A DNA stretch of 64,000 nt from Methanolinea sp. (GCA_016699325.1 CP064971.1:1819636-1883635); one strand, 5' to 3'; counted from the first letter of the stretch, positions 14,994 to 62,612 are shown. The notes: generated from the sequence alone by a model not told the origin. Numbers and translations: made by a program.

Positions 14994-15856
14994 TTAGAGA
15001 ACTTTAGGCACTATACAACATCTACAACCATATTTATGCGTACATGCCGCATAAGGCAATTCTGGGACCATATCTATATTAAAAGTTTTTCCTGCATGCT
15101 TTTTACAATTTTCGCAAGAATCTGGAGCTGTTACAATTTCAACCGATTTAACACCCGATTTTTTATATCGGTTAATTGAATACAAAAATAAAGCATATAA
15201 CAGTATCATATTAACTGATGTATTCGCATCATACTTCGAAGAAGTGAAAAAGTCCGGTATTATATATTGTTTTGCGGCAGCATTTGTTCCCCAAAGATGT
15301 ATCATGGCTGCAGCAGGACGGAGGATTTCAATTTGTTCTTGAGTATAACCATCGAGAATTTTTGGAGTCTTTGAAAAAATTAAGTTAAGAATGGTCACAT
15401 CGTTGCCCGGATCATGGTTTTTCCAATCACAGTTAATACCCCTTTGAAATACTTGTTCAGCCTCAAAATGCGCCACGGTTCCACTCGCATCGAAAAATTT
15501 ACCTTCCTTTATAAAAGAAAAGACTGTCTTTTCTGTTGCAAGCCTAATTTCCCGTTCTTTTTGAGGTAATCTTCAGCGATTAATTTTCCTTTATCACTAC
15601 AAATGAGAACATTTACATCCGTAACGAGTGATTCAATTGCTTCCCTGTCAGCCTGTATTAATCTATCAATTAGCAAGTTTTTCTTTCCCGTTACTGGCAA
15701 ATTTCTCGTTTTTAATAAAGGTTTTAGGTCAGTGAGTTTGAATTTTGCATCCATTTTTTCTTGAAGATTTGCTACTCGTAACAATCCTTCCTTAAGAAAA
15801 GCCTCTATTGCCTTTTCTAAAGGTTCATTACCTGACCTCCCGAGTTTTAGGCACAT
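14994..15856 (-). CDS. SAP-domain protein with Mu F/SPP1 gp7-like Cys/His C-terminal motif; one frameshift at an A5 run (~15545)
   Basis: ORF 15509..15856 carries a SAP motif (LTDLKPLLKTRNLPVTGKKNLLIDRLIQA). The frame of ORF 14994..15476 stays open upstream (KEREIRLATEKTVFSFIKEGKFF) to the AAAAA run. The C-terminus reads DSCENCKKHAGKTF...CTHKYGCRCC. Confidence 0.5.
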
Positions 15857-15942
15857 GATTCCATCAAATATCGGTCCAATTCTATAATGCGACCCTCAAC
15901 CGCAAGATCTAAATAATATAATGTGCTTATATTATAAGCATA

Positions 15943-17504
15943 TGAAACCCATTCGCCGAATCAAGAAGATCAATGGGATAGAATACTGGTATGAGGATGT
16001 TCCCTACTACGATCCGGTGAAGAAACAAACCCGCCACACCTCACATTATTTAGGGAAAATATCAATGGAGTTCCAGTAAAAGTAAGAACTGAAGGTATTC
16101 CAGGCCCAAGCATCTCTGCAATCCCAAAGGAAGCATTCACTCATGGAAATCTCCTCCCACTTCAGCAAATCATCCAGGACCTGCACATTGATGAATATCT
16201 CTCCACACTTGCCAGCAAGAGTGAGAAAGAGACCATTCTCGCCATAGCCATCAACCGGATCCTACATCCCGTCGCGATGCACCTTGTATCGACCTGGTAC
16301 GAAGAGAGCTCGCTCTTCCTCACCAATCCGAACCTCCATCTGAGCAGCCAATCTATCAGCGAACTTCTTTCCACCATTGGCAACAGCGGTGTTCCCGAGG
16401 AATTCATGCATCTCCTCATTCGAAACCTCGGCACCGATGCAACACTCATCTATGACATCACCAGTCTCTCAAGTTATTCGCAGCTCATATCTCTCCTGGA
16501 ATATGGGGTACAATCGTGATGGCTTGGACCTTCCACAAGTCAATTTCTCCCTTATTCTCGACACGCATCAGGCCATTCCCGTTATGTATGACATCTACCA
16601 GGGGAGCATTGTCGATGTCGTAACCTTAAAAAATACCATCAAGAAAATCGGAGCCATAGGGGTCAACAATTACACATTGGTGCTCGACCGTGGTTTTTTC
16701 AGCCAGGGGAACCTGGAAGAGCTGGTCCAGGAAGGATTCTCATTCGTAATACCTGCGTCCCTCACGCTCAAACAAGTCAAAGAGGTTCTCACCGAGCTTC
16801 AACGTGACCTTGAAAGCCCGCAATACCTGCAGAAATACCAGAAGAATCCGATCTTTGTCAAGCCTATCTCATTCGACGTGCACGGGAATGATATCAAAGC
16901 ATTTTGCTATTATGACATGAAGCGGGAGCAGGATGAACGAAATCTCTTCTATGTTCGCCTCCATGACCTGAAACAGAAACTTGAGCGTCTCAAAATACCA
17001 CGGTGGCGGAAGCCCGATGATATCTTTAAGGAGTGCGCAGGAAAGTTCTCGAATTATTTCTCCTGGCATGTGCAGGGTAACCAGTTTGTGGTCGAAATCC
17101 GGAATAATGCCGTGTCACAGAGGGTTAACAGAATGGGCAAACAGATCATTCTGTCCCATGGACCACTCGATTGGAAGGAGTGTCTCACCGTCTATCGGGA
17201 ACGCGATTATATCGAGAAAACATTCCGAACTTTGAAACAGGATCTCCAGGTTCTCCCTCTGAATGTGAAAAAGGAGTCTACAATGAAGGGGTTTCTTTTT
17301 GTCACATTTATCAGCCTCATTTTGAGGATGAAACTGCTGAAACAGATGAAGGACGCTGGACTCCTGGAAGATTATACCCTCGATGGTCTTCTCCTCGAAC
17401 TTTCCAAGATCAAGAAGATTCGATTGGTGACGGGAGAGACGATTATAACTGAAATTTCAAAGAAACAGAGAACTATCCTGGATGCACTCGGACTATGTGC
17501 TTAA
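15943..17504 (+). pseudogene. IS4-superfamily (IS1634/ISH3-like) DDE transposase with at least 2 frameshifts; element ends not defined
   Basis: MKPIRRIKKINGIEYWYEDVPYYDP starts at 15943. ORFs 16277..16519 and 16377..17504 join at a GGGG run (LLEYG/YNRDGLDLPQVN). The VLDRGFFS motif is present. Confidence 0.7.
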
Positions 17505-24423: not shown

Positions 24424-25731
24424 TTATGTAATTAGACAACTTGGAAATCCATTCCATCCATGATTATCCCAATTATAACCAATCCACACATAGGGTGGCC
24501 AATTTGGTGGATTTGGTGATGTAAATTCGAATGTAGCATTTTGATAGAAACACTCATCCGGATGGAGGAAATATCCGTCATTATTCTGAACACACCATTC
24601 TTCCCTTACTGGAGAGGTGCGAGCATCCATGTATGCGGTTCCATCGTCATCTAATCCAAGTTCAGAGGAACACTCGCTGGTTAACAATGCAGTGCATGGA
24701 TTGTGGTTATCCTGATAATAATAATAGAACCATTGATCATTGTAAGGATCATGAAGCCACATTTGATATAATCCAAGGCTTTGACCAAGGTTTATTTTTA
24801 TATACCATTCGTAATTTCTTGGAAGAAGAACATAGGGGGCCTCTAAATAACATCCTGCTCCCTCGAGATGCTCTGGATTAGATGGTGTCGGCCATGGGAA
24901 AATGGCTTTATCTCCATCTTCATTGTATATTACTGGGAATATTTTAATCGGCGCGCCATCATATGAATCGCTTGAATAACTTGCAACGATTTCGATTACC
25001 ACATCATTATTGTAATAATTTTCAACCTCCTGATAGGCAATGAATCGATCCCCATCAAATGAATACACTTCCGGCCTTATTTTACCCGTTGTGTATGTGA
25101 TATTCGTCCTATTATCAAACGGGTGGAATTGCGCTCTCCATGAACAATTTTGGGGATAGATTACATCATTATAGACCATCTCATTGGAAAACGATTCTGT
25201 ATTGAGATATGAATTCTCTCTTGGACTAATAAATCCAAACACATCTTTCCCGTTTATTGAATTAAAATTTTTATAATACTTAAACTGATCTTTGGGAAAC
25301 ATCAAGCGTATGACGTCAGGATTTGGATTAAAGGAAAAAAACATCTCTTTAGGCATGCGGAATACTACAACCGGCTCATCATCCCTTAATCTTATCTCAA
25401 TGAAACGGCCCATTTGATCAACTGAAAATTGTGAATCAAACGCTATTTTAAGGATTGTTATATTGATAATATCCGGATCACTTTCTCGATTATTCTCATT
25501 TAACCATCTTTCTGAAAATATGATTGTTATAATTTCTGATTCAGGGAGTGGTTCTGCAGGTTCGAGATCCTTCGGGATCTCAAAAATTAAAGATGAATGT
25601 GCATGAGTACTTTCACGGGTATTAGTTTCATTCGGCCTAATAATAGCATCATCCCCGTATGCAGGGAAGATAAATACGCCTAATAATATTAGGATTAAGC
25701 CAATTGATTTCAGGGTTGAATTCTGTTTCAT
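24424..25731 (-). CDS. Secreted W/Y-rich protein (C-terminal half paralogous to 19202..19957)
   Basis: The signal peptide MKQNSTLKSIGLILILLGVFIFPAYG starts at 25731. The ORF track extends to 25809 only because the leader has no stop codon. Confidence 0.7.
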   Translation of the reverse strand: MKQNSTLKSIGLILILLGVFIFPAYGDDAIIRPNETNTRESTHAHSSLIFEIPKDLEPAEPLPESEIITIIFSERWLNENNRESDPDIINITILKIAFDSQFSVDQMGRFIEIRLRDDEPVVVFRMPKEMFFSFNPNPDVIRLMFPKDQFKYYKNFNSINGKDVFGFISPRENSYLNTESFSNEMVYNDVIYPQNCSWRAQFHPFDNRTNITYTTGKIRPEVYSFDGDRFIAYQEVENYYNNDVVIEIVASYSSDSYDGAPIKIFPVIYNEDGDKAIFPWPTPSNPEHLEGAGCYLEAPYVLLPRNYEWYIKINLGQSLGLYQMWLHDPYNDQWFYYYYQDNHNPCTALLTSECSSELGLDDDGTAYMDARTSPVREEWCVQNNDGYFLHPDECFYQNATFEFTSPNPPNWPPYVWIGYNWDNHGWNGFPSCLIT

Positions 25732-25914
25732 GTTTCTTTCCTCCAATTCTCTTGGATTCCAGAAGGCATGACAAAAAAGGCTTTTACTGTGGAAAGCTAA
25801 TTCCATCATGCCTACGGGCTGCGAAGGGGTTCATCTGCATTGGATGTGAGGCGAACCCCCAGCAACACTTCTCAGTTTGCCTGAATGACGAAAAACTTTC
25901 TGGTGCCGCGAATT
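25732..25914 (-). promoter_or_regulatory. Conserved ~185-nt structured 5' leader, copy A (with TATA-like TTTTAAAA just upstream at ~25913-25922)
   Basis: It aligns along its whole length with 57275..57459. Two helices (GGGGUUC/GAACCCC and AGGCAUGA/UCAUGCCU) are preserved while their loops differ. Confidence 0.6.
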
Positions 25915-49349: not shown

Positions 49350-49770
49350 GTCATCTCCCATTTCTTTCCGCATACGTGGCACACCCCACCACATAAGAAC
49401 ATCGGATCCATCGCAGCAGCGGGTGCCTGGGAACACTCCCTGTCCCCGGCGTTCACCGGGCCGGTCGCAGTCACCCGCCCCGTCCAGGGCTGTGCAGCGG
49501 GAAAGGACCCGGTGCAGGACAGAGGAGGCAGGGAGAGAAACAGGCCGGAGCCGGGAGGTGCCCGAACCGAACCGGTCCAGGAAAGGCTTACAGGGACGGC
49601 CAGGGGAAAGAGGACGCTTCAAGGACCCGGGCCTGGTGCCCCCCAAGTGACCGGTGCTTCCCGGACCTGGTGCCCCCCCACTGACCGGTACTTCCCGGGC
49701 CAATGCCGATCCTTCACTTTCGCTCTCCGTGTGGCTGATCCTGTTGAGGCTGGAGACCAGAGTGACGGGT

Positions 49771-50645: not shown

Positions 50646-51809
50646 ATGGCATTTGACGAGGGGGACCCAGCCGAATGGAAACGTCGTGGCGACAGCTACG
50701 TAAAGGCCGGAAAATACGAAGAAGCAATTCAATGTTACCAGTATGCAACCTACCTTGACCCCAGGAATGCTTCGGCCTGGAACAACCTGGGATATGTCTA
50801 TTCAAAGCTGGGACGAACAGACGAGGCAAGGAGAGTACGGGAGAAAATAAACGAGATTAAAAGGCAGGAAATAACGGGAACATCCGGAATCCCGGCACAT
50901 CGGGAAAACGACGCAATATCTTTTAAATCAGACGTCTATTTCGCCTCTCCATGGGACAGGTGGTTTGCGTATATTATTGACACGATCCTGGTGGTTGTCG
51001 TTTTCTTTTTTTTGGTCCTCCTCCTCCAGGCCATCTATCCTCATAACCAGGACTCTTTCATAATTATCCTCCCTGTTGCCATGGTTACATACTGGCTGTA
51101 TTTTGCAGTTCTCGAAGCTGGAGAGAACCAGGCCACCCTGGGCAAACGGGCACTCAGGATATTTGTTACCGATGACCAGGGGAGGAGAATTACCTTTGCC
51201 CGATCTCTTGGGCGGAGTCTCTTGAAGATTGTCGATACCATTACACCCTTCAGTTTACTGACCCTCCTGAACGGGATAGCAATCAACTATACTGCAAAAA
51301 GCAAGGGCCTTCATGACTATATTGCAGGCACACTTGTGCTCACTGAAAAAGAGACCAGTAAAAAGGCTTTTTCCGGGGATACGGGCAACAGGTCGATGAG
51401 TATATGGTTTATTATCATTCTGGTCATTGTTGCCGTAATCGGCCTGATCATCATAAGTGCCGTCCTTGCAGCATTTGTCTTTGGGATGGCCGGATCGACA
51501 TCTTCCTCGGCTATCTCTCCTGAAGCAATTAAATATGTTCCCACCGGGATAAAATGCGGGGAAGGGTATTGCGGAGCCGGGAGCATTTGCTGTAATGGAC
51601 ACTGCTATGAAGAACCTGGCCCTGATTATCAAATCGATTATCAAACGTGCATGATTTATCCAAAAGGGACTGTATTGTGCGGGGAAGAGTATTGCAGAGG
51701 AGAGTGCTGCAACGGGAAATGTTACGAACCCTGTCCACCCAATTATTTCCGTGCAAATGACTGCAATTGCTACGAACAAGGCGGACTGATGTGGGAAGGC
51801 CCAAAATAG
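50646..51809 (+). CDS. TPR-repeat / RDD-family membrane protein with Cys-rich C-terminal tail
   Basis: TPR-like N-terminus (GKYEEAIQCYQYATYLDPRNASAWNNLGYVY), an RDD-type membrane domain (PWDRWFAYIIDTILVV..., ATLGKRALRIFV), then a CxxC-rich tail. Confidence 0.8.
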   Translation: MAFDEGDPAEWKRRGDSYVKAGKYEEAIQCYQYATYLDPRNASAWNNLGYVYSKLGRTDEARRVREKINEIKRQEITGTSGIPAHRENDAISFKSDVYFASPWDRWFAYIIDTILVVVVFFFLVLLLQAIYPHNQDSFIIILPVAMVTYWLYFAVLEAGENQATLGKRALRIFVTDDQGRRITFARSLGRSLLKIVDTITPFSLLTLLNGIAINYTAKSKGLHDYIAGTLVLTEKETSKKAFSGDTGNRSMSIWFIIILVIVAVIGLIIISAVLAAFVFGMAGSTSSSAISPEAIKYVPTGIKCGEGYCGAGSICCNGHCYEEPGPDYQIDYQTCMIYPKGTVLCGEEYCRGECCNGKCYEPCPPNYFRANDCNCYEQGGLMWEGPK

Positions 51810-52092
51810 AGAGGTTCCATAACATATCTTGAAATTCCTTCCCCTCCAGGGGACATTTTGACGGACCCGGGGGAAGTTTCAAGGAACCTGTCCCTTCTTT
51901 TCCAGGAATCTTTCCCCCCGCAACAAAGAGGCCTGTCAGAAAGCCAGCCTGAACATAATTTTTACCCGGGCTCGTGGTTTCCCGGGGATCTGGTAGAAAG
52001 GCCGATTTCCGGAGGGTCTCTTTCATGGTGAGCTGGTAAGGGAGCTATAACTAAATACGTGGAATGAGGAAGTGATAACTGGTGAAACAAGG

Positions 52093-52413
52093 ATGAAGGA
52101 AGAAGTCTTCTTCGGCGAAAGCATGCCAAAGGTAAGAAAAGATTACCCGGACATTTACGATGCGATCGTGCATTTGAACGAGGCTACGTATACCGGGAAA
52201 GTCCTTGACTACAAGACCCAGAAACTGATTGCCGTGGGAATCAACGCAGCTGTCTCTGATGAGAAGGCGACCAAAAAACAGATGATGAGCGCGATGAAGG
52301 AGTTAAATGTCACAAAAGAAGAGATCGTGGACGTTCTGAGAATGGTCCTCCTGACAGCGGGGATGCCACCCTTTGTCAAGGGTATGAGAATTCTCTATGA
52401 ATTGAAAGACTAG
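52093..52413 (+). CDS. Carboxymuconolactone decarboxylase (AhpD-like) family protein
   Basis: YPDIYDAIVHLNEATYTGKVLDYKTQKLIAVGINAAVSDE is typical of the CMD family. The ATG is at 52093. Confidence 0.75.
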   Translation: MKEEVFFGESMPKVRKDYPDIYDAIVHLNEATYTGKVLDYKTQKLIAVGINAAVSDEKATKKQMMSAMKELNVTKEEIVDVLRMVLLTAGMPPFVKGMRILYELKD

Positions 52414-52426
52414 GGTGTGCAGGGTT

Positions 52427-52672
52427 TCAGGGGTCTCTCTCTGTCTTTTTTTTATTCCCATTGCGATAGGTTCGCCTTGATCCTGTTCTCTCGTACCTCC
52501 CGGCCCCGGTCAGCTCATCTGCTTCTCTCTGCATCACCTCGTTCAGAAACCAGGTGATAACATTCCTCATTCCTTCTTCGTTATCGGTAAGGTAATTTAC
52601 TACGAGATCTTTACTATTCATTGCCCTGTATTCCTCCATTGTCAATTTAGAGTGGATACAGGGAATCTTCAA
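52427..52672 (-). pseudogene. N-terminal fragment of an IS256-family (mutator-type) transposase
   Basis: ITWFLNEVMQREADELTGAGRYERTGSRRTYRNG matches the conserved IS256 transposase N-terminal block. Only ~80 codons remain. Confidence 0.65.
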
Positions 52673-52835: not shown

Positions 52836-53489
52836 TTATATTTTTTTCTGGAATGCCGATTTACAGAATGATGAGATTGGGCACTTTTCACACAACGGTT
52901 CACGCGAAAGACAAATTTTTGATCCGAGGTCGAGTAATGCAAAGTTAAAATCTGCCGGGTTTTCTCTGTCAAGCAGCTCTTCCATTTTCAGGAGGAATTG
53001 TTTCTGTCTTCTTGAACCATCGTTCACCTTAGTTCCAAAAATTCGTCCGGTAATTCTGACTGTATTGGTATCAACCAGAATCTCCGGATGATTCCATGCG
53101 AAACATCGAATGGCAGATGCAATGTAATTCCCAACTCCTGGCAGGGAGAGAAGATCTTGTTTATCTTCAGGAATCCTCCCATTGAAATCCGATTCGATAT
53201 CCTGAGCCATTCGATAGATTAAATCGATTCTCCAGAATAGACCAGCAGATGCAAGTAATTCTTTAATTTCGTCGATATCTGCCTCAACAATAGCTCGAAT
53301 CGTTGGAAAACGTAAGGTAAATTTTTGATAGAGGGGAACAACCTGATCTGCTCTGGTTCTGTGAAGTAAAATTTCTGCAATCAGAATTTTATAGGGATCC
53401 TTCGTTTCTCGCCAGGGATAGTATCGAAAATTATCCTTCCCCCACTGTAGCAATAGTGAGTGTATTTTAGCGAGGCTCTCTCGTTTCAT
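52836..53489 (-). CDS. HhH-GPD base-excision glycosylase with 4Fe-4S loop (MutY/Mig-like, probable T/U:G mismatch glycosylase)
   Basis: YPWRETKDPYKILIAEILLHRT, helix-hairpin-helix LLSLPGVGNYIASAI, catalytic LVDTN, and Cx6Cx2Cx5C (CLSREPLCEKCPISSFC). Confidence 0.85.
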   Translation of the reverse strand: MKRESLAKIHSLLLQWGKDNFRYYPWRETKDPYKILIAEILLHRTRADQVVPLYQKFTLRFPTIRAIVEADIDEIKELLASAGLFWRIDLIYRMAQDIESDFNGRIPEDKQDLLSLPGVGNYIASAIRCFAWNHPEILVDTNTVRITGRIFGTKVNDGSRRQKQFLLKMEELLDRENPADFNFALLDLGSKICLSREPLCEKCPISSFCKSAFQKKI

Positions 53490-53512
53490 ATTTAAGCCGT
53501 TCCCTGATTATT

Positions 53513-54454
53513 TTAATAACAACGGTTTTCAATGATATATTTTAGCGTGGTGGCCATCCTCATTGCCACTACAGGACTGACTGAATCAGCTGCCATCTGA
53601 TATTTCATTCCCATTGCCATGGTGGGGGGGAACAGGTAGGTATCCGGAAATCCCATAATTTCAAGCACTTCTCGAACAGAGAGCACTCTTATGGGAAAAT
53701 TATTTTCCCCAGCATTTGGATGAAGGATGTACGTTTTCATCACATTGCCAAAAGAAGGCGCACATTCATCGTATTTCAATCTGTGCCAGCCATATTTACC
53801 GGTCTTATAGTTTTCGTGATATTTCTCAATTGTTTTCAAATGGGGCCACTCATGATCGGGGAAATCATGCATGGCCATTTTTTCGTATTTCTTAATTGCC
53901 TGCTCTATGCTGAGGGATTGTGACCTTAGAACTTTTAATTTCTCAAAAAAATCATCTGCATCGTTACCGAATTCTCTAAAGCCTGCAGTGAATAAGCGTT
54001 TTCTCTGACTGGCAATTCCAAAATGGCTATAATTAATTCTATGGAAGGATACACTGTATCCCTCTTTTGCAGTTCTCTCGATGAGTCCCTGATAATTGGG
54101 ATCTCCTGAAAGCGGGGGAACGTTTTCCAGAAGAAAAGCCCGTGGTCTGATTTCGTAGATATGATGGAAAAAACGGACCAACAAATTATAATCCGGATGG
54201 TTAATTCCTCTCTTTTTGATATTGATTGACGACCAGGGCCGGCAGGGAGGCCCGCCAATGATGATATCAAAATCGCCTGTTATCTCATCCTCTGCAAGAT
54301 TTTTCTTGAAAAAATTTCCAATTTTATTCAATGAGAAAATTTCACCCGACCTGGGATTGATATCTACACCGGTGACTGAAAACCCTTCATTTCTGAATCC
54401 GAGTGAGAATCCCCCGGCGCCACAGAACAGATCAAGAACTTTTAATTGTGCCAT
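53513..54454 (-). CDS. dcm: DNA (cytosine-5)-methyltransferase
   Basis: Motif I DLFCGAGGFSLGF, motif IV GGPPCRPWS, motif VI LLENV, motif VIII QRKRLF. Confidence 0.92.
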   Translation of the reverse strand: MAQLKVLDLFCGAGGFSLGFRNEGFSVTGVDINPRSGEIFSLNKIGNFFKKNLAEDEITGDFDIIIGGPPCRPWSSINIKKRGINHPDYNLLVRFFHHIYEIRPRAFLLENVPPLSGDPNYQGLIERTAKEGYSVSFHRINYSHFGIASQRKRLFTAGFREFGNDADDFFEKLKVLRSQSLSIEQAIKKYEKMAMHDFPDHEWPHLKTIEKYHENYKTGKYGWHRLKYDECAPSFGNVMKTYILHPNAGENNFPIRVLSVREVLEIMGFPDTYLFPPTMAMGMKYQMAADSVSPVVAMRMATTLKYIIENRCY

Positions 54455-54468
54455 TGTCGTGATTTTCT

Positions 54469-56142
54469 TTAATAAAGATTCTGAAGTGCAGGAACATTTC
54501 CCACAATCACCAGATATGCCCGTGCCCTTGATGTGGCAACGTAAATGAGTTCCCGATCGCCTGTCATATCAGGCGTTGCAGCAATAATTACAACACGTCG
54601 CTCAAGACCTTTAAATCTTCTAATCGTATCGAGAATGAGAAAGTCAAGGTCTATTGCTTCGGCATTTCGGCATTCAACCCCATCCAATCGTGCATCTGGT
54701 GCGAATTCAGCTATTTTCTGTGCAGATGTTACAAGGACCGCAATATCTGATGGCCTGATGCGTTCTTCTGTTAACAGGTGATGTACTCTCTGATTAATGA
54801 TTGATTGAATTTCTGATGCCGAAGAAGCATGGATCCACTCTACCTCAACCCCTTCGGGTCCAATGGGCTCAATAGCAGATCCATTGTAATATTTTTGAAC
54901 TACATTGTGAATGCGACGGGTATTACGCATATTGAGTGATAATCTGAAAGGAGGCTGATTGATTTCAAGGGGCAGAACTGGAACAGTACCATAAACACTC
55001 TGGTTGCTGTCAAAAAAGATACGAAGGAATCCATCGGGATGCAGAGCTTTGTCGAGAGTTGATAACCATTCCGGGGAAAAATCCTGCCCCTCATCGACAA
55101 TTATTACATTGAATCGGTGGTTGTGAAGTATCTGAAGAGCTTTCCCCAGAATGTCAGAATATTTCCGCGCAGATAACTTTTTCTCAGAGATACCCCCCGG
55201 TAATTGAATCCCAGCTTTGTTAGCCATCTGATAACACAGTTCGTGGAATGTGACCACTCTGATATTTTTCCAGGATTCGAGACGATGATGTATATATTCG
55301 GCAAGAGGGTGATTAAAACAGAGAAATAAAATCTTTTCACCAGAACCTGCACGACGAACAGCCTCTTCCATGGCAAGTACTGTTTTTCCAGTCCCCGCTC
55401 CTCCAGAGATTGCTGCACGATGTATATCCTGGATAAATGTGAGTGTATGGAACTGCTGATATGTCAGGGTCTCAATTTGAGCATCATCCGATGCCAGTAT
55501 GTTCCCCAATGGAACATGCAGCTGGAATGGATGTGCCAGTACAGCCTCGAGGGCTCTGATCCCATCCTCCCCAAGAGGTTTTTCCTTCTGGGACAAACCA
55601 TCGATTTCGCCATATCGGTTCATCACCCATTGTCGTAAATCGGTTTCGAACTCATCCAGACAACAGAAGATAGAGCGAGGACTGTCAGGACCCAGATCTT
55701 CTCCGGGACATTCAGAATCTGGAAGAATAACTCCGTGTCTTGCTCTTATTCGTCGTGATTTCCACTTACCCGAGTCTTTCAGTTTTTTCAGGAGATGGTG
55801 TTTGCTTGTCCTCGCCTGACCAACAGGATTCTTAATCTCGTGACGCACGCCCCATCGATCCCGGCTTTTCCATTTATCCAATTTCGGATCATAACTGACT
55901 TCTCCACCCTTTACTTCAATCGCAAGAATACCCAGATTGGGGTGGGCAATCAGGAAATCGCATTCACCATCTTTTTCTTCACCAAAAGGTGTGAGACCCA
56001 GCCACGGACGTGAATAGAAAACGACAAATGAATCCTCAAGCACATCTCGAAGACGATTATAAACCCGACATTCGGCTGACCTGAGGATATTTGAGACAAT
56101 TTCAGCGGGAATCTCGCGGGGCCACATTACCGCCATCATCAA
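54469..56142 (-). CDS. NERD (PD-(D/E)xK nuclease-related) domain fused to SF1 UvrD/AAA_19-type helicase
   Basis: NERD core GECDFLIAHPNLGILAIEVKGG, Walker A GGAGTGKT, Walker B IIVDEGQDF, and C-terminal RFKGLERRVVII and YVATSRARAYLVIV. Confidence 0.85.
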   Translation of the reverse strand: MMMAVMWPREIPAEIVSNILRSAECRVYNRLRDVLEDSFVVFYSRPWLGLTPFGEEKDGECDFLIAHPNLGILAIEVKGGEVSYDPKLDKWKSRDRWGVRHEIKNPVGQARTSKHHLLKKLKDSGKWKSRRIRARHGVILPDSECPGEDLGPDSPRSIFCCLDEFETDLRQWVMNRYGEIDGLSQKEKPLGEDGIRALEAVLAHPFQLHVPLGNILASDDAQIETLTYQQFHTLTFIQDIHRAAISGGAGTGKTVLAMEEAVRRAGSGEKILFLCFNHPLAEYIHHRLESWKNIRVVTFHELCYQMANKAGIQLPGGISEKKLSARKYSDILGKALQILHNHRFNVIIVDEGQDFSPEWLSTLDKALHPDGFLRIFFDSNQSVYGTVPVLPLEINQPPFRLSLNMRNTRRIHNVVQKYYNGSAIEPIGPEGVEVEWIHASSASEIQSIINQRVHHLLTEERIRPSDIAVLVTSAQKIAEFAPDARLDGVECRNAEAIDLDFLILDTIRRFKGLERRVVIIAATPDMTGDRELIYVATSRARAYLVIVGNVPALQNLY

Positions 56143-57274
56143 CCTCTCTCAGCAAATCTGAAAAATATCCCATCCCTCTATCGTCAGGAAGCCCTACCAG
56201 CATTGCCCGATCAAGAAACCGGTTATACTGTTCGCATGACGTTTCAGGCGCCAGACAGCAGGCATGGCATGCAGACCCGGAATAGTGTTCTGGTGGGGCA
56301 ATCACCTGTTCGATACAGAGCGGATCCGAAGAGCACCACTCCATGTCCCGTATAGCAGCTCTTACCGTTGGTGAGATTCTGGCAGCTTCACCCTGACGTT
56401 GAAGACCCCCAAGCGTACCATCAGAATCAGAGGTGGCTGTATATATGAGAACTCCTGCCATATCACCGGAATCATCACTGACATATATCCTCTCTCTGAG
56501 CGATGCGCTTGAGTATCCGCATTCGAGAGTAAGCTGTCGCATAAGTGCATGAGCCCACGTGTGAACAAGGAAGTAACGTGGCGTAAGAAGAGGTGTGGAT
56601 CTGCCCTCAAAGCGTTTGTTCCATTCACGCTGCCAGCGCTCCTGGATTGCCTCTGCACGCAGTCTTATCCTTTCCTGCTGCTCCCAGCATCGGAGAGTGG
56701 TCGGGTTAAACTCCATAAAAATACCCTCTCCACGGACTTCAATTGCAGGTAACCATCGAGTTGCGTTCAATGATAGAGGAACAATGTTTCTATCGTTTTC
56801 ATCTCCACATGGATTTATTCTGGTAAATCCTCTAAGGGTAATAACCTCGTGCAGGCGCACCACTCTGACAATTTTTCTGAAATAAGGTCTTATTTCATCG
56901 GGAACTTCAACATTCCTTATCTCAAAATCGCCATCATCGTCCTGGCCGATATCAAAACCTGCAATAAGGTGCTTGTATTCCTCATACTTGAGGTTCAGCA
57001 TTTCATCTCGATGAAAATCTTCAAGTCGCTCTTCAATCATTCTAGTAAGGGATTCAGGAGTGAGGTTGAGATTCTTCAGGGTCTCTTTCAGACTTCCCCT
57101 GGCCAGAATTCGGATATATTCTGCTCTGTCGTCCGGATCTGTTTTTACCAGTTCATCCCAGTAAACTCCCAGCTCTTTCTCTGATAGTACGACTGCGCTT
57201 GCAGGCACGGCAAAGGCAAGTGCCAGCATCACGAGTGCTACTACCATTATTCCGAACTTCTTTCCTATTTTCAT
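56102..57274 (-). CDS. DUF1998 (MrfA/DrmB-type Zn-binding domain) protein with a signal-peptide-like N-terminus
   Basis: C-terminal half: HTWAHALMRQLTLECGYSSASLRERIY...GVLIYTATSDSDGTLGGL...CHACCLAPETSCEQYNRFLDR. N-terminus: MKIGKKFGIMVVALVMLALAFAVPASA. The stop overlaps the helicase start. Confidence 0.7.
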   Translation of the reverse strand: MKIGKKFGIMVVALVMLALAFAVPASAVVLSEKELGVYWDELVKTDPDDRAEYIRILARGSLKETLKNLNLTPESLTRMIEERLEDFHRDEMLNLKYEEYKHLIAGFDIGQDDDGDFEIRNVEVPDEIRPYFRKIVRVVRLHEVITLRGFTRINPCGDENDRNIVPLSLNATRWLPAIEVRGEGIFMEFNPTTLRCWEQQERIRLRAEAIQERWQREWNKRFEGRSTPLLTPRYFLVHTWAHALMRQLTLECGYSSASLRERIYVSDDSGDMAGVLIYTATSDSDGTLGGLQRQGEAARISPTVRAAIRDMEWCSSDPLCIEQVIAPPEHYSGSACHACCLAPETSCEQYNRFLDRAMLVGLPDDRGMGYFSDLLREVDDGGNVAPRDSR

Positions 57275-57459
57275 GTTTCTTTCCTCCAATTCGCTTGGAT
57301 TCCAGAAGGCATGACAAAAAAGCTTTTAATGTTTTAAGCCAATGTTTATCACGCCTACGGGCTGCAAAGGGGTTCAACATCATTCCAACGAGGTTAGAAC
57401 CCCTCGCAACAAATCTGCAATTCTCAGCAGAGCAGAAAAAACTTCTGAGGTCACGAATT
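57275..57459 (-). promoter_or_regulatory. Conserved ~185-nt structured 5' leader, copy B (TATA-like TTATTTTTAC at ~57460-57470)
   Basis: Homologous to 25732..25914, including the identical CUUCUGGAAUCCAAG.GAAUUGGAGGAAAGAAACAUGAAA at the 3' end. Confidence 0.6.
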
Positions 57460-61819: not shown

Positions 61820-62612
61820 CCGGTGCTGACCCGGACCCAAGATCCCGGTCTCCTGCTGGAACCGGTATCACTTCTGCGGATGGACGATCGCTTTCATGCT
61901 CCCGTCCCGGTGCCGGGCTGGAACCGGTATTCATTTCTGCGGATGGACGATCGCTTTCATGCTCCCGTCCCGGTGCCGGGCTGGAACCGGTATCACTCCT
62001 GCGGATGGACGATCGCCTTCAGGCTCCGGTCCCGGTGCCTTGCTGGAACCGGTATCATTCCTGCGGATGGACGATTGCCTTCACGCTCCCGCCCCGGTCT
62101 CCTGCTGGAACCGGTGTTACTCCTGCGGATGGACGATCGCCTTCACGCTCCCGTCCCGCTGCCGGGCTGGAACCAGTATCACTCCTGCGGATGGATGATC
62201 GCCTTCGGACTTCCGTCCCGGTGCCGGGCTGGAACCGGTGTTACTCCTGCGGATGGACGATCGCCTTCAGGCTTCCGTCCCGGTGCCGGGCTGGAACCGG
62301 TATCACTCCTGCGGATGGATGATCGCCTTCGGACTTCCGTCCCGGTGCCGGGTTGGAACCGGTATCACTCCTGCGGATGGATGATCGCCTTCACGCTCCC
62401 GCCCCGGTCTCCTGCTGGAACCGGTATCACTCCTGCGGATGGGCGATCGCCTTCATGCTCCTGTCCCGGTCTCCTGCTGGAACCGGTATCACTCCTGCGG
62501 ATGGATGATCGCCTTCACGCTCCCGCCCCGGTCTCCTGCTGGAACCGGTATCACTCCTGCGGATGGACGATCGCCTTCAGGCTCCCGTCCCGGTGCCGGG
62601 CTGTCAGGAGGA
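61820..62612. repeat. Tandem array of 12 x 62-bp units (first unit 63 bp) derived from the 3' end of the adjacent dehydrogenase gene
   Basis: Units start (TCA, the complement of the stop codon) at 61868, 61931, 61993, 62055, 62117, 62179, 62241, 62303, 62365, 62427, 62489 and 62551. The last unit is the real gene end. Confidence 0.95.

Follow-up and report, generated by a model that had tools for sequence, protein, structure and literature searches.

Class 2 of the DISARM defence system, which Ofir et al. are said to have defined in 2018, reportedly consists of the genes drmE-drmA-drmB-drmC-drmMII. In canonical DISARM, the slot directly after drmB is held by the PLD nuclease DrmC, a protein that is typical of these systems but reported to be dispensable. 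The class 2 gene set used here for comparison was also drawn from Bravo et al. 2022 (PMC9142583), who described the Serratia DrmAB structure, and from the YprA preprint. In Serratia DISARM, a pivot arm of DrmA buries approximately 1850 Å2 on the N-terminus of DrmB, and deletion of this pivot arm severely cuts defence (PMC9142583).

The window, that is, the whole 64-kb stretch of DNA that was analysed, contains a block of four genes related to this system (Table 1). The preliminary description had reported co-oriented minus-strand genes with two short gaps, and the ORF calls agree: ORFs A and B share 35-41 nt, varying with the start codon taken for ORF B, and gaps of 14 nt and 23 nt separate B from C and C from D. 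Its domain identifications for all four proteins held in Pfam, NCBIfam and PADLOC profile searches, as did the AT-richness of the block, whose G+C content is 44.3%, compared to 60-65% in the immediate flanks (44-50 kb and 58.5-64 kb). The window is itself a compositional mosaic, with further low-G+C stretches at 14-26 kb. We consider, with a probability of roughly 85%, that the block is what remains of the 3' part of a class-2-like DISARM operon, acquired by horizontal transfer, from which the sensor helicase has been deleted.

Table 1. Features of the block and its borders in the window
Feature	Position	Strand	Remarks
ORF A	56102..57274	-	390 aa from ATG; 395 aa from upstream TTG
Captured 5' leader	57269..57376	-	Second copy at window 25726-25833, 5' of a secreted-protein gene
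33 foreign codons in frame with the drmB fragment (MKIGKKFGIMVVALVMLALAFAVPASAVVLSEK)	57176..57274	-	Similarity to L011 lost 5' of 57175
3' drmB fragment	56102..57175	-	Codons 275-631 of the L011 ortholog; 357 residues
ORF B	54469..56142	-	557 aa from TTG; 555 aa from ATG at 56136
NERD nuclease + SF1 UvrD-type helicase fusion (ORF B)	54469..56142	-	Pfam NERD, UvrD-helicase, AAA_19, UvrD_C_2
ORF C	53513..54454	-	313 aa
DrmMII-type C5-cytosine DNA methyltransferase (ORF C)	53513..54454	-	PF00145 and PADLOC DrmMII
ORF D	52836..53489	-	217 aa
Mig-like HhH-GPD/[4Fe-4S] DNA glycosylase (ORF D)	52836..53489	-	Pfam HhH-GPD and HHH
IS256-family (Mutator) transposase stub	52427..52672	-	81-aa ORF; PF00872 (Transposase_mut) 1.6e-9

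The closest relative of the block is a metagenome contig, L011, to which it aligns by blastn at 90.4% nucleotide identity, without gaps, over 4325 nt (window 57175-52851, L011 8156-12480). L011 carries a seven-gene operon coding for an m5C methyltransferase, a UvrD-like helicase, DrmA, a full-length DrmB, a NERD/SF1 helicase, a second m5C methyltransferase and an HhH-GPD glycosylase; at the more distant loci L001, L003 and L015, UvrD-DrmA-DrmB also lie 5' of the same NERD-helicase, methyltransferase and glycosylase genes. Similarity to L011 stops at two sharp breakpoints, at window positions ~57176/57175 (codon 275 of drmB) and ~52851 (the end of ORF D). Using tblastn, no DrmA, UvrD-like helicase or DrmB N-terminal remnant was found in the 64-kb window, the best match of L001 DrmA to the whole window having an E-value of 2.3. 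At least six contigs that come from independent samples and assemblers show at least 99.98% identity over both junctions, so the chimera is not an assembly artefact. A deletion or recombination event took from the window copy the genes for the first methyltransferase, the UvrD-like helicase and DrmA, together with drmB codons 1-274. What was left of drmB became an in-frame fusion with leader and signal-peptide codons taken from an unrelated gene for a secreted protein, and the 3' end was rearranged beside the IS256 stub. This stub, which had already been reported to border the block, matches only positions 16-68 of the 379 of the Transposase_mut profile; it lies ~180 nt past the 3' breakpoint and is the mark of a rearranged boundary. 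No convincing second IS256 copy was found in the window, where tblastn gave a single further match, a weak one (49523-49612, 40% over 30 aa, E = 0.017).

A survey was made of 80 genomic loci carrying a NERD-helicase of the ORF B type, of which 57 had enough flank to score DrmA. The drmB gene lies directly 5' of the NERD-helicase in 67 of the 80 loci (median gap 12 nt), DrmA is present in 56 of 57, and a UvrD-like helicase is found upstream in 53 of 55. The DUF1998 protein and the NERD-helicase are thus co-conserved, as the preliminary description had envisaged, within DISARM-like operons. The only other DrmA-less locus, L049, is plainly a relic, as it keeps just a 58-aa drmB stub. The intact gene order among relatives is [m5C MTase]-UvrD-like helicase-DrmA-DrmB-NERD/SF1 helicase-DrmMII-(Vsr or Mig-like glycosylase), and their DrmA matches a DrmA profile at 6.5e-219 and DISARM_DrmAS of NCBIfam with 949.6 bits, while their DrmB matches DrmB_fam with 538.8 bits. 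Judged from gene content, this parent cassette is a widespread, class-2-like DISARM variant, with a NERD/SF1 nuclease-helicase in the place of DrmC. No name for it was found in open-access and bioRxiv full text; its components, however, score as DISARM DrmA, DrmB and DrmMII with PADLOC and NCBIfam, and the term 'undescribed' that had been applied to the system is for the most part no longer appropriate.

The block shares with DISARM class 2 a DrmB-family protein, ORF A, and a DrmMII-type methyltransferase, ORF C, matched over its full length. In the intact relatives, a short-type DrmA (DISARM_DrmAS) and a full-length DrmB are encoded by separate adjacent genes, which is a hallmark of DISARM. 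In the window, by contrast, DrmA is absent beside drmB, and DrmB has kept DUF1998 and lacks its N-terminal half and OB fold. The parent cassette differs from DISARM by an extra UvrD-like helicase 5' of DrmA, by a T:G-repair enzyme (Vsr or Mig-like) often found beside the methyltransferase, and by a DrmE that is absent or weakly suggested: a 708-aa downstream protein of L001 has a DrmE_C match of 23.5 bits, below the cut-off of 27, and no PADLOC match. Nothing similar to this protein was found by tblastn in the 64-kb window. In the intact relatives, the gene directly 3' of drmB is that of the NERD/SF1 helicase, and PLD DrmC was detected neither in the four window proteins (Pfam, PADLOC) nor in the seven relative loci with precomputed Pfam hits, which include L001, L003, L011, L095, L096 and L097.

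On the strength of its profile matches, ORF A is a genuine DrmB, of which only the C-terminal 357 residues are present, joined to a foreign leader. It scores 323 bits with DrmB_fam of NCBIfam (cut-off 240), over profile positions 269-603 of 604 only, 8.7e-64 with PADLOC DrmB, and 40.4 bits with Pfam MZB/DUF1998 (PF09369), which bears out the kinship with DISARM DrmB recognised earlier. BLASTP aligns it at 61% identity to residues 250-618 of L001 DrmB (residues 258-618 with tblastn). The C-terminal half is kept, including the four-Cys DUF1998/MZB module, while the whole N-terminal half is absent, leaving 390 aa compared to ~600-625 aa in nearly all close DrmB homologs. The L011 DrmB aligns over its full length with Serratia DrmB (7S9V_B, 2.9e-86) and, by analogy with Serratia DISARM, a DrmB cut back to its C-terminal half should be disabled. 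DISARM sensing has been lost in the window copy, as both DrmA and the part of DrmB wrapped by the DrmA pivot arm are missing.

The 33 codons that replace this half resemble a signal peptide, with a basic n-region, a hydrophobic core (mean Kyte-Doolittle hydropathy 2.62 for residues 8-24) and a PASA motif, and a GGAGG lies 8 nt 5' of the ATG. The two copies of the leader are 89% identical over 109 nt, and its 48-nt core, with GGAGG and ATGAAA, has two matches in the window where none is expected. The captured segment comprises a probable promoter, 5'UTR and ribosome-binding site, its promoter function being predicted, and the remaining genes may be transcribed from it.

The four genes had been interpreted as a self-contained, undescribed system, with an effector made up of the short DUF1998 protein and the NERD-helicase, a methyltransferase to label self DNA, and a glycosylase to keep the mutagenic cost down. 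All four ORFs are indeed intact and tightly packed, dN/dS is low in every gene, DUF1998 fragment included, and DrmB adjoins the NERD-helicase in 67 of 80 loci. Moreover, PADLOC also holds a 314-position DrmB model, which the drmB fragment fills from end to end, so half-size DrmB-like proteins may be real in some systems. However, the three 'short' DrmB homologs on long contigs, which were those checked, each still lie beside DrmA; DrmA is kept in 56 of 57 loci, the only other case without it being the relic L049 with its drmB stub; the 90%-identical L011 carries a complete DrmA/DrmB operon; and ORF A consists of a foreign signal peptide followed by drmB codons 275-631, and such a peptide, attached to a DNA-binding module, argues against a cytoplasmic role. 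Given that DrmA was lost by deletion, that ORF A is chimeric and that L011 has the full operon, we consider the new self-contained system very improbable. The lack of DrmA, DrmC and DrmE, taken earlier to define a new four-gene architecture, does not do so, since DrmA has been deleted here from a cassette that retains it nearly everywhere else.

ORF B joins a NERD domain (residues 23-124; 37.6 bits with Pfam NERD, a PD-(D/E)xK nuclease type) to UvrD-type helicase domains (residues 243-547). Its best-scoring defence profile is PADLOC RTasNERD-Hel, that is, the NERD-helicases of defence reverse transcriptases, matched over nearly the whole length (2.5e-59, residues 10-547 to profile positions 4-510 of 519); the block and the operons of its relatives differ from these in having no reverse transcriptase gene. 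With Nhi/AbiO, ORF B shares the fusion of an N-terminal nuclease and an SF1 helicase in one polypeptide, and about 15% of its surveyed homologs stand as solo genes. Only residues 226-450 match PADLOC Nhi, however, and they do so weakly (7e-7), which places ORF B outside the Nhi family, and most of its own family sits in DISARM-like operons. Residues D62, E76-V77-K78, Walker A G247-K253 and D350-E351 are invariant in 26 homologs, and the window copy deviates at 3 of 63 near-invariant columns.

Twelve of the 80 NERD-helicases are solo genes that have no conserved neighbours although their upstream flank is complete, and a thirteenth has a flank too short to judge. The family can thus exist without DrmAB, which leaves some room for a residual trio, where the NERD/SF1 protein would be a solo, Nhi-like effector, the methyltransferase would be kept to shield host DNA from it, and the glycosylase would mend deamination. 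The window NERD-helicase is not degraded and its catalytic residues are invariant, and the link of its best PADLOC match to defence reverse transcriptases suggests a portable effector. The independent relic L049 also keeps the NERD-helicase, a methyltransferase and a T:G-repair enzyme (Vsr). Yet the latter two belong to an adjoining EcoRII-type R-M system, so their retention needs no link with the NERD-helicase, and two relics with 5' loss can be a coincidence. As methylation sensing by the NERD nuclease found no support, and the closest NERD-helicase relatives of the window are all DISARM-linked, we consider a functional trio rather unlikely. A bolder proposal, which we regard as doubtful, is that UvrD-DrmA-DrmB-NERD/SF1-helicase represents a distinct, unnamed DISARM class with a NERD effector, and that NERD-helicase, m5C methyltransferase and T:G repair form a self-sufficient, methylation-gated restriction module that outlives the loss of DrmAB, here and independently in L049. 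If this were true, the NERD nuclease-helicase would supply the nuclease that DISARM has been missing, DrmC being dispensable.

Compared to L011, the block has accumulated 417 substitutions and no frameshift or premature stop. The drmB fragment has a dN/dS of 0.15, similar to the values of the other three genes (0.17, 0.21 and 0.07), and amino-acid changes are not in excess on the window branch. With no such sign of decay, it may be that selection still acts on the drmB fragment, or simply that the gene was truncated recently. One might also suppose that the whole block is dead cargo, an untranscribed foreign fragment being lost, with no functional product: both its ends are truncated, the IS256 stub adjoins it, its G+C content is far from that of the immediate flanks, and the population contigs are clonal, so selection is unreadable from polymorphism. 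This is nevertheless improbable, as 4.3 kb have remained open at 9.6% divergence from L011 with a dN/dS of 0.07-0.21, the methyltransferase, NERD-helicase and glycosylase have all kept their catalytic motifs, and, as a result of the junction, the block is preceded by a duplicated leader whose GGAGG site is strong.

In the intact DISARM-like form, by analogy with the Serratia structure, a DrmA:DrmB helicase complex would load on unmethylated foreign DNA; the NERD/SF1 nuclease-helicase would, from its position and conservation, be the likely effector, the m5C methyltransferase would mark self DNA, and Vsr or the Mig-like glycosylase would, as known for these families, mend T:G mismatches arising from m5C deamination. 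For the remnant in the window, the motifs suggest that an orphan m5C methyltransferase and a T:G-repair glycosylase are probably still working, and that the NERD-helicase possibly still acts alone. ORF C matches DNA_methylase (PF00145) over its full length (1.4e-45) and positions 1-321 of the 323 of PADLOC DrmMII (PDLC02655, 1.9e-101). All its catalytic motifs are present, with FCGAGG, PPC, ENV and QRKR conserved, and window-specific substitutions fall outside them. No cognate restriction endonuclease of a type II R-M system lies beside ORF C: the only other nuclease ORF in the block is the NERD protein, and the sole PADLOC 'REase_II' match is the glycosylase ORF D itself ('nicking endonuclease' model PDLC03398, 1.4e-39).

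ORF D matches the TIGR mutY model at 5e-52, under that model's cut-off, and, in the PDB, MutY catalytic domains at ~1e-41 and Mig.MthI (1KEA) at 1e-38 over its full length (residues 9-210). The alignment with MutY covers the catalytic domain only, the C-terminal 8-oxoG domain being absent from ORF D, and shows that the VDxN Asp and the CX6CX2CX5C loop are retained. The specificity positions A50/Y126/L187 of Mig correspond to V45/S120/Q182 of EcMutY (PMC2714593). At these positions ORF D has Ala (HRTRA), Tyr (GVGNY) and Phe (FNFAL), where BsMutY has Val, Tyr and Glu, so the match to Mig is inexact at the Phe that stands for Leu. ORF D is probably a T:G/U:G mismatch-specific glycosylase. It resembles Mig.MthI, found with M.MthTI on the Methanothermobacter plasmid pFV1, in being a ~220-aa HhH-GPD/[4Fe-4S] glycosylase encoded beside an m5C methyltransferase, in lacking the MutY C-terminal domain, and in its Mig-like specificity residues (PMC2714593). 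It differs by the Phe at the L187 equivalent and by a C-terminal tail rearranged at the 3' breakpoint; the block also differs from the plasmid pair in lacking a cognate restriction endonuclease. Homology to L011 ends ~15 nt before the ORF D stop codon; the protein thus ends in 4 new residues and lacks 14 aa that form part of the tail in the relative. The pairing is also reminiscent of bacterial Dcm-Vsr, as Vsr holds the glycosylase slot in bacterial versions of the parent cassette. Across the 80 loci, an m5C methyltransferase is found in 50, Vsr in 35 and HhH-GPD in 1; the logic proposed earlier, of an m5C methyltransferase paired with a Mig-like T:G glycosylase, is supported by these 35 loci, bacterial cassettes in which Vsr lies beside the methyltransferase.

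The preliminary description had read positions 52836-57274 as a candidate undescribed four-gene defence system. Its descriptive part held on re-examination. Four packed minus-strand genes are present, ORF A and ORF B overlapping by 35-41 nt, depending on the start codon chosen for ORF B, and the others being separated by gaps of 14 nt (ORF B/ORF C) and 23 nt (ORF C/ORF D). All domain names proposed for ORFs A to D and for the bordering IS256 stub were upheld by profile searches, and the block is AT-richer than its immediate flanks (44.3% G+C, compared to 60-65%), within a window that is a G+C mosaic as a whole. No tRNA that could mark an integration site of this low-G+C island was found within the window, flanking repeats in the window were only short and at chance level, and zero Rfam matches to structured RNAs were obtained at 49-59 kb. 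For the two genes of the low-G+C stretch next to the block (50646-52413), no link to it is evident.

Features of the four-gene block and of related sites in the window
Feature	Positions	Strand	Description
Secreted-protein gene	24424..25770	minus	448 aa, in a 38% G+C stretch
Second leader copy	25726-25833		precedes the secreted-protein gene
TPR/RDD gene	50646..51809		TPR + RDD membrane protein, Cys-rich C-terminal tail
CMD-family gene	52072..52413		small protein
IS256/Mutator transposase stub	52427..52672		81 aa, profile positions 16-68 of 379 matched
ORF D	52836..53489	minus	217 aa, HhH-GPD + HhH
ORF C	53513..54454	minus	313 aa, C5-cytosine methyltransferase, full length
ORF B	54469..56142	minus	557 aa, NERD + UvrD-type SF1 helicase
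ORF A	56102..57274	minus	390 aa, MZB/DUF1998
Leader of ORF A	57269-57376		about 110 nt around the ORF A start
Tandem array	61855-62603		62-nt unit, 12.1 copies, 88% matches, inside a minus-strand ORF

The claim of an autonomous system was not confirmed, since the block is a 3' fragment and its intact relatives carry a DrmA/DrmB operon. ORF A scored 323 bits against the NCBIfam DrmB_fam profile (cut-off 240), covering only profile positions 269-603 of 604, and matched the PADLOC DrmB models at 8.7e-64; ORF C matched PADLOC DrmMII over its full length (1.9e-101). By these profile matches, ORFs A and C are DISARM components, ORF A being only half present. Whether a shortened DrmB recurs naturally was considered. 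Nearly all of the best 120 ORF A homologs are about 600-625 aa long (53-64% identity), and the few shorter ones come mostly from short contigs. Of the short homologs found on long contigs, three (P0086, P0088 and P0103) were checked, and a DrmA gene was present 440-640 nt upstream of each. All three being beside DrmA, the short form was rejected; a frameshift or a misplaced start in the gene call is the simplest explanation of their length, rather than a system without DrmA.

Full-length DrmB proteins, 60-64% identical, are found on contigs L001 and L003, where the gene order is (m5C methyltransferase)-UvrD-like helicase (about 629 aa)-DrmA (about 1072 aa)-DrmB (about 620 aa)-NERD/UvrD helicase (about 560 aa), followed by an m5C methyltransferase and an HhH-GPD protein. 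PADLOC matched both methyltransferases of L001 to DrmMII (1.7e-182 for the first, 1.2e-106 for the second), the UvrD helicase to a GajB-like model, DrmA and DrmB to their own models (6.5e-219 and 4e-88) and the NERD-helicase to RTasNERD-Hel (1.8e-59); the 'nicking endonuclease' model that matches ORF D was matched in L001 as well. The closest relative, contig L011, was picked up through its 89%-identical NERD-helicase. It carries seven genes, for a methyltransferase (423 aa), a UvrD helicase (628 aa), DrmA (1058 aa), DrmB (631 aa), the NERD-helicase (555 aa), a second methyltransferase (313 aa) and an HhH-GPD protein (227 aa). Its DrmA reached 949.6 bits against NCBIfam DISARM_DrmAS (cut-off 950). 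Its DrmB scored 538.8 bits in NCBIfam and could be aligned over the entire length with that of Serratia (PDB 7S9V chain B, 2.9e-86).

Alignment with L011 located both ends of the fragment. Window positions 57175-52851 correspond to L011 8156-12480, without gaps over 4325 nt, at 90.4% identity, and the rest of L011 has no further match to the window. The 5' boundary is sharp: identity starts with codon 34 of ORF A (GAG), the counterpart of codon 275 in L011 drmB. ORF A therefore consists of 33 foreign residues joined to DrmB residues 275-631. The foreign part, MKIGKKFGIMVVALVMLALAFAVPASAVVLSEK, is organised like a signal peptide into n-, h- and c-regions (residues 8-24 have a mean hydropathy of 2.62), and its ATG is preceded, at a distance of 8 nt, by a GGAGG. 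The leader is duplicated elsewhere in the window, ahead of a gene for a secreted protein without Pfam match; the two copies share a near-identical 48-nt core that includes the GGAGG and ATGAAA, for which the expected number of chance matches is 0. A deletion or recombination event therefore joined what is left of drmB to the leader and signal-peptide codons of another gene, which belongs to a local paralogous family. The chimeric 'secreted DUF1998 protein' of public annotation is a gene-fusion artefact. On the 3' side, the match to L011 ceases about 15 nt short of the ORF D stop, beyond the final Fe-S cysteine. ORF D ends in four new residues and lacks 14 of those in the tail of the relative, and the IS256 stub follows about 180 nt further on.

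An assembly artefact was ruled out: because independent JGI, ENA and NCBI assemblies, at least 99.98% identical across both junctions, contain the same joins, the junctions are real. A tblastn search of the whole 64-kb window revealed no remnant of drmA, of the genes for the UvrD-like helicase and the first methyltransferase, or of the 5' half of drmB. We conclude that the block is the 3' fragment of a DISARM-like operon that lacks DrmA and the N-terminal half of DrmB. The preliminary description was right that the block has no DrmA; that this defines a new architecture does not follow, as the relatives carry DrmA. Domain content by itself would lead to the block being mis-assigned as a novel four-gene system, when it is a decayed DISARM-type operon.

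To survey the parent cassette, an alignment of the NERD-helicase was scanned against one genome per species, which yielded 213 relatives, and the best 80 loci were classified by tblastn. The suspected adjacency of DUF1998 and NERD-helicase genes proved to be conserved: drmB lies directly upstream in 67 of these 80 loci (median gap 12 nt), with a complete N-terminus in 65. Where the flank was sufficient, DrmA was present in 56 of 57 loci and a UvrD-like helicase upstream in 53 of 55. An m5C methyltransferase was found at most 10 kb away in 50 of the best 80, adjoined by Vsr in 35; a single locus (L015, Methanosarcinales) has an HhH-GPD glycosylase instead. Among the 13 loci without drmB upstream, 12 are solo with full flank, for which no conserved neighbours were found, and one has a flank too short to judge. 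Among the hosts are many Alpha- and Gammaproteobacteria (Pseudomonas, Xanthomonas, Ralstonia, Paracoccus), Desulfobacterota, Gemmatimonadota, Bacteroidota and methanogens. Plasmids carry the cassette too: on Rhizobium rhizogenes plasmid pC5.7d (positions 56091-68631 of the record), UvrD-DrmA-DrmB-NERD has a Vsr gene on one side and an AAA-ATPase/helicase pair on the other, with a VapBC toxin-antitoxin and an integrase alongside. RefSeq product names in this one plasmid record are generic only. A MAG of Candidatus Porisulfidus (L049, 9829-14789) contains a 58-aa drmB 3' stub, directly preceded by housekeeping genes and followed by a NERD-helicase, an HTH-m5C methyltransferase, Vsr and an EcoRII-type endonuclease; this is a second, independent DISARM-like relic. 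In a Rhodobacterales MAG (L030, 6497-11752), a 1751-aa ORF has the NERD-helicase homolog as its C-terminal third, fused to a large N-terminal extension.

Class 2 DISARM comprises DrmE, DrmA, DrmB, DrmC and DrmMII. The cassette resembles it in its short DrmA, separate DrmB and DrmMII. It differs in that a UvrD-like helicase precedes drmA, that a NERD/SF1 helicase always follows drmB, and that the PLD nuclease of class 2 is missing: no PLD/DrmC gene was found in seven relative loci whose called genes have precomputed Pfam matches. DrmE is at best weakly suggested in L001. There, a 708-aa protein beside the cassette (15305-17431) scored 23.5 bits against DrmE_C, below the cut-off of 27, without a PADLOC match; a counterpart adjoins the cassette in L056 (8149-10104), and this protein may be a divergent DrmE. 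A preprint on the YprA family regards the PLD nuclease as typical of DISARM and mentions a DISARM-like clade with 'many uncharacterized DISARM-like classes'; the NERD-linked cassette is not described there, and full-text searches of open-access and bioRxiv papers found none that connects DISARM with a NERD-helicase. The cassette is a widespread DISARM variant, unnamed in this searchable literature, in which a NERD/SF1 nuclease-helicase and a UvrD-like helicase, in place of the PLD nuclease, are firmly linked to DrmA and DrmB. The window copy is a degenerate member of this variant, left by ordinary genome decay.

DrmA and DrmB form a 1:1 complex in which the C-terminal pivot arm of DrmA wraps the DrmB N-terminus, burying about 1850 A2 and adding one strand to the OB fold, and deletion of the arm severely reduces defence (PMC9142583). 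DrmC, which is not co-purified with DrmAB, is dispensable (PMC9142583). In the intact cassette, the NERD/SF1 protein is the likely effector, in the slot held by DrmC in canonical DISARM, and it supplies a testable candidate for the destruction of DNA by DISARM.

ORF D aligned with MutY catalytic domains (about 1e-41) and, over its full length, with Mig.MthI (1KEA, 1e-38); it has no MutY C-terminal domain. At the aligned specificity positions it has Ala for the conserved Val of MutY, Tyr at S120/Y126 and Phe for Gln/Glu (EcMutY Q182). Mig.MthI has A50, Y126 and L187 there, and A50V/L187Q moves it towards A/G (PMC2714593); ORF D differs from it in having Phe for L187. These residues, together with the swap of Vsr for the glycosylase in bacterial cassettes, support ORF D as a predicted T:G/U:G repair enzyme coupled to m5C methylation. 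The cassette presents Vsr and a Mig-like glycosylase as interchangeable partners of its m5C methyltransferase.

The genes for the NERD-helicase, methyltransferase and glycosylase are intact. Not one of 417 substitutions relative to L011 is a frameshift or premature stop, and dN/dS was 0.15 for the drmB fragment, 0.17 for the NERD-helicase, 0.21 for the methyltransferase and 0.07 for the glycosylase. In the NERD-helicase all invariant residues are retained, among them D62, E76-V77-K78, Walker A and DE-Q-D, and 3 of 63 near-invariant columns deviate, as is typical for the family; the seven lineage-specific changes of the methyltransferase all fall outside the FxGxG, PPC, ENV and QxRxR motifs. 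With L001 as out-group, no excess of replacements was seen on the window branch (drmB 8 compared to 5, P = 0.58; NERD-helicase 11 to 13, methyltransferase 7 to 7, glycosylase 3 to 4). Relaxed selection on the drmB fragment was thus rejected, neither dN/dS nor the relative-rate test revealing acceleration. Either the truncation is young compared with the 10% divergence from L011 or constraint on the remnant persists, two situations that give the same outcome in the relative-rate test. The relic would be incapable of DISARM sensing, and the ORF A product, if made, might even be exported. An orphan modification and repair pair probably survives in the methyltransferase and glycosylase, and the NERD-helicase may survive as a solo nuclease-helicase; the captured leader may now drive transcription of all four genes. 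Population polymorphism was uninformative, because the contigs are at least 99.98% identical. Two population contigs (L006 and L009), otherwise identical, align differently at the tandem array, which suggests that its copy number varies in the population.
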